Shown: positions 13,844 through 63,210 of the stretch, piece after piece
Layout of the letters: each line of letters opens with the position of its first letter
How positions within the stretch are numbered: the first letter of the stretch is position 1
Assembly: GCA_000146465.1 (NCBI GenBank)
Contig: CP001947.1
Reading direction: 5' to 3' (one strand)
Length of the DNA stretch: 64,000 nucleotides
The notes under the pieces: generated by a model
The model's input: the letters and a program-made list of their open reading frames with translations, nothing else
Database searches by the model: none
What the model was told of the DNA's origin: nothing
Program-made: the position numbers and the translations under genes

Positions 13844-14425
13844 TTATATCGAGTTTATTCTTTCTCTTATCATGTCCTCAAGATCACAAGGCTGGAGTAC
13901 ATTGAACATCTTCATCTTGGACAAGGCAAATATTGTATGGAGGTCGTTGTATTCGTTTAAAAAGTATGATAGCACCCCCTCTCGGCTTTCGCCTCTTCTG
14001 TTCTGCTTGATCACCAAAGAGCTTTCCAAATGGAGATAATGGAACTTCACATTGAACAAGACCAGCCGAAGAAATGCTGTGGCCTCTTCATCCTCGCCCA
14101 AAGACCCGATGGCCCTACAGATGTACTTCCCCAGGCTCTTCCATTTATAAATCATGTCGACTACCTTGCACTTTCCACTTTCCTCTGTGTATCCCTTTAT
14201 ATACATCATGATTGCCTCCATAAGCATCTTTATTCCCTCTTTCCTAGACTCCCCCATCATTGCATCTGCCTTGGCTCTCAAATCCTTTGCCTTTTGAAGA
14301 AGCAGACTTGTATCTGGGGCCTGGGGTTTCTGGAATGTTCCATATCCAAGCTTGTCGATTTCTGGGTTGCGGAAGATTTTTGACTCGACCAGCTTCTTTA
14401 TCCTGGAGGATATAGAGCTGTCCAT
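13844..14425 (-). CDS. Hypothetical protein
   Basis: 194-aa ORF. The track starts at TTG 14428; first ATG is at 14425. No recognised domain. Confidence 0.35.
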   Translation of the reverse strand: MDSSISSRIKKLVESKIFRNPEIDKLGYGTFQKPQAPDTSLLLQKAKDLRAKADAMMGESRKEGIKMLMEAIMMYIKGYTEESGKCKVVDMIYKWKSLGKYICRAIGSLGEDEEATAFLRLVLFNVKFHYLHLESSLVIKQNRRGESREGVLSYFLNEYNDLHTIFALSKMKMFNVLQPCDLEDMIRERINSI

Positions 14426-14501
14426 CAAGGGATGAAAATGGTGCTGAATAGTGGCTACCCCAGGGCGAGGAGGAAAGGCCCTGGAGGCCGAAGGATATCT
14501 T

Positions 14502-14524
14502 GAAAAATTTGCAGCCCCAGGAAA
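14502..14524 (+). promoter_or_regulatory. AAATTT-like plus CCC-like upstream motif of RPL5 (GAAAAATTTGCAGCCCCAGGAAA directly before ATG)
   Basis: Read in sequence. The same module occurs upstream of RPL19, RPL14, RPS18 and RPL36 in this window. Matches the transcription signals described for microsporidian highly expressed genes. Confidence 0.5.
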
Positions 14525-15413
14525 ATGGTAAGTGGCACATGGTAATTTTAAGAGTAATGCAAAGGGGACCAGGAACTACCACAAGAACTTCCAGGTGAAG
14601 AGAAGAAGAAGACGAGAGGGCAAGACCGACTACAAGCACAGAACCAATATGATTCGACAGGATTCCAACTCATACGGGTCTGTGAAGCACAGGCTGGTTG
14701 TCCGGATTACAAAGAGCCGGGTGATTTGCCAGATCACAGGAGCCTACATGGATGGAGACCGAGTGATGGTGTATGCAGACTCGTCTGAGCTGAAGAAGTA
14801 TGGAATCAACTTTGGGCTTACAAACTACTCTGCAGCATATGCAACTGGATTCCTGATTGGAAGAAGGGCACTGACAGCATTGTCTCTGGATGGAGTATAT
14901 GGGCCCAAGGAGATTGACGGGACATACAGTATTACGGAGGATGTTGATGGAGAGAGAAAGGCGCCCAAGGTGTTCCTCGACATTGGACTTGCAAGGTCCA
15001 CAAAGGGAGCAAAGGTGTTTGGAGCAATGAAGGGAGCATCTGATGCAGGACTGAACATCCCACACAGCGAGGTGAAGTTCTATGGGTACCAAGAGGATGG
15101 GAGCTTTGATGCAAAGGAGCTGCACGACAGGATTTTTGGATACAACGTCTCTGAGTACATGCAGAAGTTGCGGGACAGTGATGAAGAGAAGTACAAGACC
15201 CAGTTTTCAGACTATATCAAGAAAGGCATCTCGGCCGAGGACATTCCACAGATCTACAAGAGTGCTCTGGACAAGATTGCATCAGACCCATCGAAGGAAG
15301 CAAGGGAAGTGAAGGACTACTCTTCGCTTAAGAAGTACCGGCCGGTTCGACTTACATATGAGGAGCGCAAGGAGAGGATACAGGCCAAGCTTTCCACGAT
15401 TGAGAGCGAATAA
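14525..15413 (+). CDS. RPL5: 60S ribosomal protein L5 (uL18); exon 1 is ATG 14525-14527, a 25-nt intron spans 14528-14552, and exon 2 is 14553-15413
   Basis: The ORF-track protein (from GTG 14532) is RPL5 ([15 protein letters not shown]...). In that frame a stop lies immediately upstream and there is no ATG. ATGGTAAGT at 14525 and TTTTAAG ending at 14552 restore the frame to give [28 protein letters not shown]. Confidence 0.85.
14528..14552 (+). other. Spliceosomal intron of RPL5, 25 nt: GTAAGTGGCACATGGTAATTTTAAG
   Basis: GTAAGT donor immediately after ATG, TAATTTT branch-like element, AG acceptor, frame preserved. Confidence 0.75.
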
Positions 15414-15511: not shown

Positions 15512-15583
15512 GACGGTGTGGCGCAATGGTAGCGCGTCGGATTCCAGTCCCGAAGGTTCTAGGTTCAAATCCTAGCTCCGTCA
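15512..15583 (+). tRNA. tRNA-Trp (anticodon CCA), 72 nt
   Basis: Hand-folded cloverleaf. D-arm GCGC/AATGGTA/GCGC, anticodon loop TTCCAGT, T-arm CTAGG/TTCAAAT/CCTAG. Near-identical to eukaryotic tRNA-Trp. Mismatches at acceptor 6:67 (U.U) and anticodon stem 31:39 (A.C). Confidence 0.7.
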
Positions 15584-15673: not shown

Positions 15674-17821
15674 ATGAAAGCCGAGGAATCTCGGGGCCAA
15701 AGCCCTGTCTCAGACCAAGGGTTATGGGAATATGCAGTTTCTTCCATCTTCACCGGAGCTCAAAGGAAGTTTAGAGAAGCATTGGTCATCCCAGGCCTTC
15801 GGCCTCCGGGACCTAGGATTCATTTTGTACCCAAGGATGTCTGGAAGGCCATAAAGGAGGATCTTTCCACGGAATGCAACCCTTGCTACGAGTATCGGGA
15901 AGAGCCTTGGAGAGCAGTTTTTGTTACGTTTGTGATAGATGAGCTTGTCCCTAACACCAATGCCCCAGAGACCGGAAGAAGCATGGTTGTCAAGGTTGGA
16001 TGGATACTTTCCATACTCCAGTCTCTTGTTAGCCTCAACGACTTTAGGTCTTACGAACGGCCTTGCCGTACAGGAGGAATGGGGAAGTCTAGAAAGATAG
16101 TAAATGTCCTCTCCAGTTCGACAGATAGAGTGTTTGATGTGGTGCTGGAAATAATGGGCTTCGAGGTTGGGCTGGACGAGTTTATGAGCCTGTACAGAAT
16201 TATGGCGCTGGACGGGAGGGTGATCCATCCCTTAGTGAAACTTGAAGGCTTTGGAGATGGAAGTGTACTCCGGATCTCAAGGATTGTAAGGATGCCTGAC
16301 GGAAGGGCTCTGTCTGCCGACAGCCACATGAAGAACATAGCCCGGGGACTTAAGAATCAAGGGAATACGTGTTTTATGAATAGCGGGCTTCAATGCCTGA
16401 CAAATTGCTGGAAGCTCACGGAGTATTTCATGAGCAAGGAGTATGAAAAACATTTGGACGAGACAAAGCCTATTCATGTATCTCTGGCCAATGCATACTA
16501 TGATCTTATCTCGGAGATGTACAATGGAGATCAACAGTCCATTGTGCCATCTGGGATCCGTGCAAGCCTGGGATCGGTTTATGAGGAATACAAGGGAAAT
16601 GAAGAGCAGGATGCAGCGGAATTTATCGGAAAGACACTAGACATGCTTCATGAGGGTCTTTCAAAGGGATATGGGGACAGCGAGAAGAAAGAAAGCTGGA
16701 AGCGGTCGATTGTCACCGACCTGTTTTTCTTCTCTCAGAAATCGACGTTGACATGCAAGGAGTGCGGAAGAAGCAAGACATCTGTCGAGCCCTCGATGTG
16801 TCTTTCTTTGCCTATTCCATACCAAAGGGAATACAAAGAGAACATTGTGTTGTTCTATGAGTCTGGCAGGAGACAGCCTTTAAGAACGTATGCAGACGTG
16901 TCTTCCAGCATTGGAGATCTTAAGAGGATACTGAGAGCAGACTATGATGTGGCTGGAAAGGTTACGTGCATATGGTATGGCGCAGGACGGAGGATGTTTG
17001 AACTTGGAGATGACGTTATTCTGAAGGATGTTCCGCAGACCTTGTTCTGCTACGAGTACTTTGAGGATAAGAAATACTGCTGGGTCCATCTGAAGACTAA
17101 GAAACTGTTTATAGACAGGTCATTTAAGTTCAACATATTGATCCGAGCCTTTGGAAGTAATGAATCGCTAATATTCTTGGAGATGAAGAAGACGATAGCC
17201 CATCTTGTTGAAAGGGAAGCACAGTGCATTCTGGAACGGGAGGACATTTCCCCATACTTCAAGCTAGAAATAGCGGCGTGGGATTATGGGGAGAAAACAA
17301 TCGACTCTCCTGTTGTGGTGGCGATAAGTAGATCCCACGGGGGGAAAAGGCTGTTTGGGGCTTCCTGGAACCCTCTGGACACGATTCGGGCGATAGATGC
17401 ACCATCCATTACCCTTCAACACTGCTTAGACAAGTTTCTGGAGAAGGAAGATCTTCATCCCTCGGAGCTCTTACATTGCGAGGGGTGTGGCAGAAAGAGA
17501 AGGTTCAGTAAGAAGATGGACTTGGAGTGTCTCCCTGTGTATCTGATAGTCCAGCTGAAGAGGTTCCAGTATGTCAACTCCTTTCCCGTAAAGATCTCAA
17601 CTCTGGTTGGATATTCCCTGGATAGATTTTCCATTTGTGGAACGGAATACAAAGTCATAGGAGTGTGCAACCATGACTCGGATACAGTCACATCTAGTGG
17701 ACATTATGTAAGCTATCTTCGAAAGGACGGATGGTACCTTTGCAACGACCAGAAGATTGAGAAGGTCTCGAAAATAGACCAGGAATACACATATGTTCTC
17801 TTTCTTGAAAGATGTGTCTAG
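15674..17821 (+). CDS. Ubiquitin carboxyl-terminal hydrolase, USP/UBP family
   Basis: 715 aa. Cys box GLKNQGNTCFMNSGLQCL and His box GHYVSYLRKDGWYLCNDQKI. Confidence 0.8.
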   Translation: MKAEESRGQSPVSDQGLWEYAVSSIFTGAQRKFREALVIPGLRPPGPRIHFVPKDVWKAIKEDLSTECNPCYEYREEPWRAVFVTFVIDELVPNTNAPETGRSMVVKVGWILSILQSLVSLNDFRSYERPCRTGGMGKSRKIVNVLSSSTDRVFDVVLEIMGFEVGLDEFMSLYRIMALDGRVIHPLVKLEGFGDGSVLRISRIVRMPDGRALSADSHMKNIARGLKNQGNTCFMNSGLQCLTNCWKLTEYFMSKEYEKHLDETKPIHVSLANAYYDLISEMYNGDQQSIVPSGIRASLGSVYEEYKGNEEQDAAEFIGKTLDMLHEGLSKGYGDSEKKESWKRSIVTDLFFFSQKSTLTCKECGRSKTSVEPSMCLSLPIPYQREYKENIVLFYESGRRQPLRTYADVSSSIGDLKRILRADYDVAGKVTCIWYGAGRRMFELGDDVILKDVPQTLFCYEYFEDKKYCWVHLKTKKLFIDRSFKFNILIRAFGSNESLIFLEMKKTIAHLVEREAQCILEREDISPYFKLEIAAWDYGEKTIDSPVVVAISRSHGGKRLFGASWNPLDTIRAIDAPSITLQHCLDKFLEKEDLHPSELLHCEGCGRKRRFSKKMDLECLPVYLIVQLKRFQYVNSFPVKISTLVGYSLDRFSICGTEYKVIGVCNHDSDTVTSSGHYVSYLRKDGWYLCNDQKIEKVSKIDQEYTYVLFLERCV

Positions 17822-39523: not shown

Positions 39524-40068
39524 TCAAGACGAGACTGCTCTGTTCGACAAGTTAAGTGCCTCTGCCTGCTCGGCAAGCTCTCGGGCTCTTTGCTCATCGG
39601 CCTTTCTCTTGATTATGCTATCTTTCATGTGGAATCTGTGCTTGAAAAGATGGCCCTTTGCCTGCTTGTAAAACACTCGGAAGTCTTCCTTGGTGATCTC
39701 TCCATTGGCCCTCATCTCCTTCAGCATCTTCCTCATTGCACGAATCTTCTTCATCCATAGCTCCTTCCTTGGCATTCTTGCATTGGCCGTACCAAAGCGC
39801 TTTCCAGGCCCCATGTGCCTCCCCTTCTTCTTGGCTGCCAGGCGCTTTCGGAGTCGTCCTCTGCTGGTGTGCTTGTCCTGCTTCATAATAATCACATTGT
39901 CTTGTATCAGCTGCCTAATCTGATCCCGAGTGGTTGCTCCGTTGAGCCTCTCAATTTCGTTGTTATCCAACCAAAGCTTCTTCTTCCCACATCCTAGGAT
40001 GTCTGCTGCCAAACGCCTGACTCTCTCCTCGTTCGACCTTCAAATTAGAAATGATCCATCACTTACAT
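39524..40068 (-). CDS. RPL19: 60S ribosomal protein L19e; exon 1 is AT at 40068-40067, a 29-nt intron spans 40066-40038, and exon 2 is 40037-39524
   Basis: The ORF-track protein (TTG start) is L19e but lacks the conserved N-terminus. AAAATGTAAGTG on the minus strand gives AT|GTAAGT...TTTGAAG|G. Splicing completes ATG and yields MSNEERVRRLAADILGCGKKKLWLD, matching the L19e N-terminus. Confidence 0.8.
40038..40066 (-). other. Spliceosomal intron of RPL19, 29 nt, sitting inside the start codon: GTAAGTGATGGATCATTTCTAATTTGAAG
   Basis: GTAAGT donor begins at the G of ATG, CTAATTT branch-like element, AG acceptor, frame restored. Confidence 0.7.
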
Positions 40069-52663: not shown

Positions 52664-53014
52664 TCATGCCAGTCCCTTTTCCTTTAGGAGCTCGTCCTCA
52701 ACTCTTTTCCTCAGCTTCATCTGGAATCTCTCGAAATCATTGGTTGTATCCTCCTCACTAATGCTTTCTGGAATGAGCTTTCCTATCTCTTCTGGACTAA
52801 GATCCTTAATGTCAAACGACTCATCCTCAAGGTGGAGATTAGATATAGAGCACATTTCCCTCTCTCCATCCTTCCTCTGGAGAAGTACAAAGGTTGCATC
52901 GATGATGCCAACAATTATGCCATATGTTTTTCTTTTTTCTTTGAGTGCAGGTGTCACAATCCTTCCCAGCCTTACTGTCTTCTAAAGTTAGCCAAAAAGA
53001 AGCTCACTTACCAT
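52664..53014 (-). CDS. RPL14: 60S ribosomal protein L14e; exon 1 is ATG at 53014-53012, a 30-nt intron spans 53011-52982, and exon 2 is 52981-52664
   Basis: The ORF-track 97-aa ORF begins at GTG with no early ATG. Its sequence (YGIIVGIIDATFVLLQ...NDFERFQMKLRKR) matches L14e. Upstream, ATGGTAAGTGAGC...GGCTAACTTTAG|AAG restores the frame to give MKTVRLGRIVTPALKEK..., matching the L14e N-terminus (FKRFVEIGRVALV). Confidence 0.8.
52982..53011 (-). other. Spliceosomal intron of RPL14, 30 nt: GTAAGTGAGCTTCTTTTTGGCTAACTTTAG
   Basis: GTAAGT donor directly after ATG, CTAAC branch-like element, AG acceptor, frame preserved. Confidence 0.75.
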
Positions 53015-59749: not shown

Positions 59750-59822
59750 GGCCTCATAGCTCAATGGTTAGAGTGTCGGCCTACGGAGCCGAAGGTTGAG
59801 GGTTCGAGTCCCTCTGGGGTCG
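59750..59822 (+). tRNA. tRNA-Arg (anticodon ACG), 73 nt
   Basis: Hand-folded: acceptor GGCCTCA/TGGGGTC, D-arm GCTC/AATGGTTA/GAGT, anticodon stem TCGGC/GCCGA with loop CTACGGA, T-arm GAGGG/TTCGAGT/CCCTC, discriminator G. Confidence 0.85.
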
Positions 59823-62998: not shown

Positions 62999-63017
62999 TG
63001 TTTTTTTTCCTAGGCCC

Positions 63018-63210
63018 TACCTCTCAAGCCAATCGGCTTTGATCAAGTGTAGTATCTGTTCTTGCCAGTGTAAGAACTGGCATTATCCGTAAGGATAAAT
63101 TCATCGAATTTTTGGATGGCAGGGTGATGTAGAGGAGCTTGAGCGCTTGCGTTTCGGCCAATCTACTTGAGGTCTGCAGGCTTCTGGGCTGTAGAGCCTA
63201 GGAAAAGCCG
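63018..63210 (+). ncRNA. U2: U2 spliceosomal snRNA
   Basis: GATCAAGTGTAGTATCTGTTCTT at 63041-63063 is identical to the conserved U2 5' region, including the GUAGUA branch-point-interacting sequence. Stem I is AAGCC/AATC/GGCTT. Stem IIa is GTTCTTGCCAG..TAAGAAC..TGGC. Canonical Sm site AATTTTTGG at 63107-63115. 3' stem-loops, then a T7 run at 63211-63217. The 5' and 3' ends are approximate. Confidence 0.8.

Follow-up and report, generated by a model that had tools for sequence, protein, structure and literature searches.

A 25-nucleotide intron directly after the RPL5 start codon of Encephalitozoon intestinalis: an annotated feature that prokaryote-style ORF calling misreads

In Encephalitozoon intestinalis DNA, the RPL5 gene for ribosomal protein uL18 is interrupted by a 25-nt spliceosomal intron whose first base adjoins the initiator ATG, an extreme 5' position in a ribosomal protein gene. 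Our analysis covered a window of 64,000 nucleotides, by which we mean the whole stretch of DNA under study, and we assign a probability of about 93% to the reading that RPL5 pre-mRNA carries this post-AUG intron at positions 14528-14552 and is spliced to encode a uL18 protein of 287 amino acids. The intron is real, and it had been read correctly from the sequence alone. It is not a discovery, as public annotation already contains it and introns of this kind are textbook knowledge for these genomes, and biologically it adds nothing new. The main value of the case lies in annotation quality: ORF calling in the prokaryotic manner mis-starts microsporidian ribosomal protein genes, and the RPL5 ORF that begins with GTG is an artefact of a prokaryotic ORF rule applied to a eukaryotic gene.

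The RPL5 gene and its product

Exon 1 of RPL5 is the initiator ATG alone (14525-14527, forward strand); no other ATG from the promoter signal to the coding body leads, after excision of the intron, into an open frame. Exon 2 (14553-15413, forward strand) begins with the codons AGT AAT GCA AAG GGG ACC and includes the TAA stop at 15411-15413; its assignment is based on the open frame together with Pfam matches and an alignment to the ribosome structure 7QEP. Conceptual splicing of 14525-14527 to 14553-15413 yields an open frame of 287 residues. Read unspliced from the ATG at 14525, the same DNA encodes MVSGTW and then a stop after six codons. In the exon 2 frame the closest upstream stop is a TAA at 14529-14531, within the 5' splice site GTAAGT, and no ATG occurs until 14649; the bacterial-style caller behind the mechanical ORF list took the GTG at 14532-14534, inside the intron, as the start, and returned an artefactual protein of 293 residues (14532..15413).

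This is the situation described by the sequence-only reading, whose span (14502-14560) covers the promoter signal and start codon, the whole intron and the opening codons of exon 2. It had claimed a 25-nt intron directly after the RPL5 ATG, a GTG-start protein from the ORF caller, a frame closed upstream by a stop and lacking an ATG, and an N-terminus that is restored by joining ATG to AGT. All of this is borne out: the GT-AG intron is seen in the sequence, the stop and the GTG lie where described, and the spliced product equals ADM11690.1, the 60S ribosomal protein L5 of E. intestinalis ATCC 50506, residue for residue (287/287 identical, equal length). The same protein sequence is also deposited under KAL7345584.1, KAL7347532.1 and KAL7349492.1. 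Identity to ADM11690.1 implies that the exon structure is the same as that of the deposited gene, and thus that the intron had already been annotated. We therefore assign the window to E. intestinalis, either this strain or one nearly identical to it, and 14525-15413 on the forward strand to RPL5/uL18; the assignment draws on the protein match with its accessions and on gene order. The G+C content of the window is 42.9%; that of the E. intestinalis genome is 41.4% (PMC4355639).

The spliced product matches the Pfam families PF17144 (Ribosomal_L5e, 4.1e-70, residues 12-173) and PF14204 (Ribosomal_L18_c, 4.6e-13, residues 232-284), and its residues 1-287 align with residues 1-287 of chain L5 of the Encephalitozoon cuniculi ribosome (7QEP, E = 4.6e-157). 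It also matches microsporidian, yeast and human L5 from solved ribosomes. The protein has the L5e domain, the eukaryotic L18 C-terminal region and an end-to-end alignment to a ribosome structure that includes the N-terminal block, the features by which we assign it to uL18.

A tRNA-Trp(CCA) gene (15512-15583, forward strand) lies 98 nt 3' of the RPL5 stop and about 90 nt 5' of a gene for a UCH-type hydrolase (15674-17821, forward strand), the next gene after RPL5 and the tRNA. The order cullin-like gene (reverse strand), gene of about 194 aa (reverse), RPL5 (forward) and UCH-type hydrolase (forward) is common to the window, Encephalitozoon hellem and Ordospora colligata. A further tRNA gene, for tRNA-Arg(ACG), is found at 59750-59822 (forward strand). 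An antisense ORF overlapping the intron site (14244..14639, 131 aa, GTG start) lies across the promoter-bearing intergenic DNA and the first part of RPL5; we take it for a chance ORF.

The intron, its signals and related elements in the window

The intron, GTAAGTGGCACATGGTAATTTTAAG (14528-14552, forward strand), has GT...AG ends that are both conserved in seven species, and its removal yields exactly ADM11690.1. Its 5' splice site is GTAAGT (14528-14533), and its 3' part is formed by the conserved block TAATTTTAAG (14543-14552), which contains a presumed branch site, TAAT (14543-14546), and the 3' AG (14551-14552). UGGUAAU, the putative branch sequence, resembles the yeast consensus UACUAAC only weakly. 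The length of 25 nt is not divisible by three, and retention of the intron leads to a stop.

In length, boundaries and position the intron fits a described class. The short introns of Encephalitozoon are about 25 nt long, have GT-AG ends, begin after the initiator ATG and reside mostly in ribosomal protein genes (Whelan et al., PMC6349667). The proposal that length and position are as expected for a reduced spliceosomal system therefore agrees with the literature, which describes introns of about 25 nt behind the ATG (PMC6349667, PMC3629993, the supplement of PMC2803860, and PMC4355639). According to Grisdale et al. 2013 (PMC3629993), introns of this type range from 22 to 76 nt, an interval that includes the RPL5 intron; in E. 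cuniculi, RNA-seq confirmed every previously annotated intron, and every one of them, if retained, causes a stop or a frameshift.

The promoter signal (14503-14518, forward strand) comprises an AAATTT-like box, AAAAATTT (14503-14510), and a CCC-like box, CCCC (14515-14518), and ends 6 nt 5' of the RPL5 ATG. Signals of both types, together with very short 5' UTRs, have been described for microsporidian ribosomal protein genes by Peyretaillade et al. 2009 (PMC2803860), and the supplement of that paper lists E. cuniculi L5 as 'AAAATTTTTCAGCCCCGAGAAA (intron)', an upstream string nearly identical to that of RPL5 here. The arrangement of AAAAATTT followed by CCC precedes the ATG in all seven orthologous loci.

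The combination of splice signals is rare. The pattern GTAAGT-N(6-24)-TAATTT-N(0-4)-AG occurs twice on the two strands of the 64 kb, as against 0.06 occurrences expected from shuffled sequences, which argues that the RPL5 intron pattern is not due to chance; both copies mark the start codon of a ribosomal protein gene and stand behind an AAATTT/CCC promoter signal. The string ATGGTAAGT likewise occurs twice in the window, with 0.38 occurrences expected.

Two further ribosomal protein genes in the window carry introns of the same class at their start codons, behind the same promoter signal, and these introns too are real. In RPL19 (eL19; gene at about 39524-40068, reverse strand), the 29-nt intron GTAAGTGATGGATCATTTCTAATTTGAAG (40038-40066) splits the start codon as AT|G, and the promoter signal, AAAAATTTGCACCC, is of the same type as that of RPL5. 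The spliced product of 171 residues contains both Pfam L19e domains (8.4e-22 and 1.9e-31), and E. cuniculi L19 is flagged as intron-bearing in the published supplement (PMC2803860). In the gene for eL14 (reverse strand, ATG at 53012-53014, gene end at about 52664), the 30-nt intron GTAAGTGAGCTTCTTTTTGGCTAACTTTAG (52982-53011) lies directly after the ATG and has a canonical CTAAC branch motif; the spliced product of 106 residues has no Pfam matches and aligns over residues 1-106 with 7QEP chain M4 (ECU06_1215), and with microsporidian eL14. A U2 snRNA gene at 63017-63209 (forward strand; Rfam RF00004, full-length model match, score 83.5 bits, gathering threshold 46) retains the GUAGUA box for branch-site recognition intact (63049-63054), so that one of the key splicing components is encoded nearby.

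Conservation among relatives and competing gene models

We compared the RPL5 start region with those of E. hellem (L001), O. colligata (L002 and L003), four relatives represented by Logan assemblies (L004-L008, from SRR21023581, SRR21023578, DRR353006, SRR29713749 and SRR21633403) and Enteropsectra breve (L009). The four Logan relatives are Encephalitozoon/Ordospora-like microsporidia present in public read sets, and their RPL5 proteins, 73-79% identical to the E. intestinalis query, come from genes that share synteny and the intron with it. An intron follows the ATG in six relatives besides the window, with lengths of 25 nt in E. intestinalis and E. hellem, 28 nt in O. colligata (both loci), and 29 nt (L004 and L005), 30 nt (L006), 26 nt (L007) and 24 nt (L008) in the Logan relatives. 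Both intron ends have been kept (GTAAGTG ... TAATTTnAAG), around a middle that differs in sequence and in length. At the 5' site, GTAAGT is found in five of the seven species and GTAGGT and GTATGT in one each; the TAATTTnAAG block is present in all seven. All three phases occur among these lengths, as is typical for an intron; coding sequence would not allow it.

The 12 nt that follow the intron AG behave differently: across the seven species they contain no indels and vary in a codon-like manner (S/T, N/S/D, A/T, K), with synonymous-type changes such as AGT/AGC, AAT/AAC and AAG/AAA. E. breve has no intron at this position; behind an upstream signal of the same AAATTT/CCC type, AAAAATTTGCAGCCC, it has a contiguous ORF, MSDNKGTRSY, of which MSDNKGTR aligns with MSNAKGTR. 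The spliced product thus lines up with RPL5 elsewhere, as the sequence-only reading had stated: the intron position is conserved in six relatives, and the N-terminus of the intron-less gene matches.

The annotated N-termini are MTNAKGT in E. hellem and MSNAKGT in both O. colligata and E. cuniculi GB-M1 (CAD25450.2, 287 aa). For E. cuniculi the acceptor differs between public entries, as AGE95710.1 has 283 residues and begins MGTRNY.... The sequence comparison favours the 287-residue form of E. cuniculi RPL5.

The sequence of AGE95710.1 is exactly that expected at the N-terminus if the main acceptor were the second in-frame AG, 12 nt further 3' (14563-14564, forward strand), which would define a 37-nt intron and a 283-residue protein, MGTRNY.... 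This version is likewise in frame, and in three E. cuniculi genes acceptors further downstream have been reported to be used on rare occasions (PMC3629993); the alternative isoforms reported make up less than 5% of reads. We consider it very improbable that 14563-14564 is the main acceptor, and see it as a possible minor alternative: the AG at 14551-14552 is the first 3' of the conserved TAATTT block, the 12 nt between the two acceptors vary like codons and without indels over seven species, the matching codons of E. breve, whose gene has no intron, read SDNK, and the 25-nt type of junction is the one used in the annotations of E. intestinalis, E. hellem, O. colligata and E. cuniculi GB-M1 as well as in the 7QEP sequence. 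A third candidate, the AG at 14553-14554, was rejected; the resulting 27-nt intron would join ATG to TAA, an immediate stop, and be non-productive.

Models without splicing have hardly any probability. Translation of an unspliced transcript from the GTG at 14532 is what the mechanical ORF caller returns, and in E. hellem, too, the frame is open from the equivalent GTG, but in O. colligata a TGA inside the intron closes it, and with an orthologous stretch of 24-30 nt the frame relation to the GTG varies by species. A eukaryotic ribosome would, moreover, reach the AUG at 14525 first and stop after six codons; the promoter signal is spaced relative to the ATG; and in the N-terminal alignment no orthologue has anything to match the extra residues AHGNFK. 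We give equally little credence to translation from ATG 14649 (MIRQD...), which would produce a truncated L5 of about 254 residues. Without splicing, no in-frame ATG comes earlier, and the automatic protein call of one relative (P0008) starts at the equivalent internal ATG; yet the locus of that very protein, L008, has an ATG followed by GTATGT...TAATTTAAG upstream of the called start, and a start at 14649 would cut off the beginning of the Ribosomal_L5e domain (residues 12-173) and lose a conserved N-terminal block with invariant columns R19-E23, K25, T26 and Y28.

The mis-start problem is visible in the public protein collection itself, where the RPL5 relatives P0005-P0008 have artefactual N-termini. 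All four automatic calls from the Logan relatives are wrong at this end (intron read-through, TTG start or internal Met): P0005-P0007 read through the intron, and P0008 begins at an internal Met. For such gene models we regard the promoter signal in combination with ATG+GTAAGT...TAATTTnAAG as a reliable rule of correction.

Proposed splicing of RPL5 and relation to known systems

From annotation, conservation and RNA-seq in E. cuniculi, we infer that the E. intestinalis spliceosome removes 14528-14552. Transcription of RPL5 would be driven by the ribosomal-protein promoter of AAATTT/CCC type and leave a 5' UTR of probably only a few nucleotides. In the pre-mRNA, the 25-nt U2-type GT-AG intron would come right after the AUG. 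The reduced microsporidian spliceosome is expected to recognise a strict 5' site, GUAAGU, and the combined branch-site and 3' block UAAUUUUAAG; the branch point is presumably an A of UAAU (14544-14545). Joining of AUG to AGU at what is probably the first AG 3' of the branch site would then give the 287-residue protein. Transcripts that remain unspliced would encode only MVSGTW before the stop and be non-productive, and they probably make up a large share. The short introns of E. cuniculi are spliced on average in less than 20% of transcripts (PMC6349667, citing PMC3629993), and 81% of its annotated introns are spliced in less than half of transcripts (PMC3629993). Mostly unspliced RPL5 transcripts are therefore to be expected and would not speak against the intron; by counting transcripts that retain 14528-14552 as contrary evidence, the sequence-only reading set too strict a standard.

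A regulatory role seems unlikely to us. The intron would in that case be a device and no passive remnant, retained by most RPL5 transcripts, which would make only the six-residue peptide MVSGTW, so that splicing efficiency sets the output of uL18, and the +12 acceptor (14564) might add an isoform beginning MGTRNY.... For E. cuniculi in general, Grisdale 2013 (PMC3629993) had already brought up both regulation and alternative isoforms. If true, the regulatory reading of RPL5 would be at most a gene-specific example.

Compared with the E. intestinalis gene for ADM11690.1, the RPL5 gene of the window is alike in protein (287/287) and exon structure, with no detectable difference. The E. cuniculi GB-M1 gene (CAD25450.2) is alike in product length, in its MSNAKGT N-terminus, in being flagged as intron-bearing and in its upstream signal. 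Both the intron with its position and the class to which it belongs have reportedly been on record since the genome papers of E. cuniculi (Katinka, 2001) and E. intestinalis (2010), and the 2010 paper by Lee is said to be the one that defined the intron motifs of E. cuniculi. Among the short introns of Encephalitozoon ribosomal protein genes (Katinka 2001; Lee 2010; Grisdale 2013; Whelan 2019), that of RPL5 is a typical member, with no difference noted.

Outside the microsporidia, introns of Paramecium (about 25 nt) and of chlorarachniophyte nucleomorphs (18-21 nt) resemble the RPL5 intron in their extreme shortness and GT-AG ends. Introns in those genomes, however, number thousands or hundreds and are dispersed among the genes, whereas an Encephalitozoon genome has only a few dozen, strongly biased to the 5' end and inefficiently spliced (PMC3629993). 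The introns of yeast ribosomal protein genes are alike in their enrichment in this gene class, their 5' bias, their strict GUAUGU/GUAAGU and branch motifs and the first-AG rule, but they are hundreds of nucleotides long and about 80% spliced, whereas the RPL5 intron has 25 nt and belongs to a class that in E. cuniculi is spliced to less than 20% on average.
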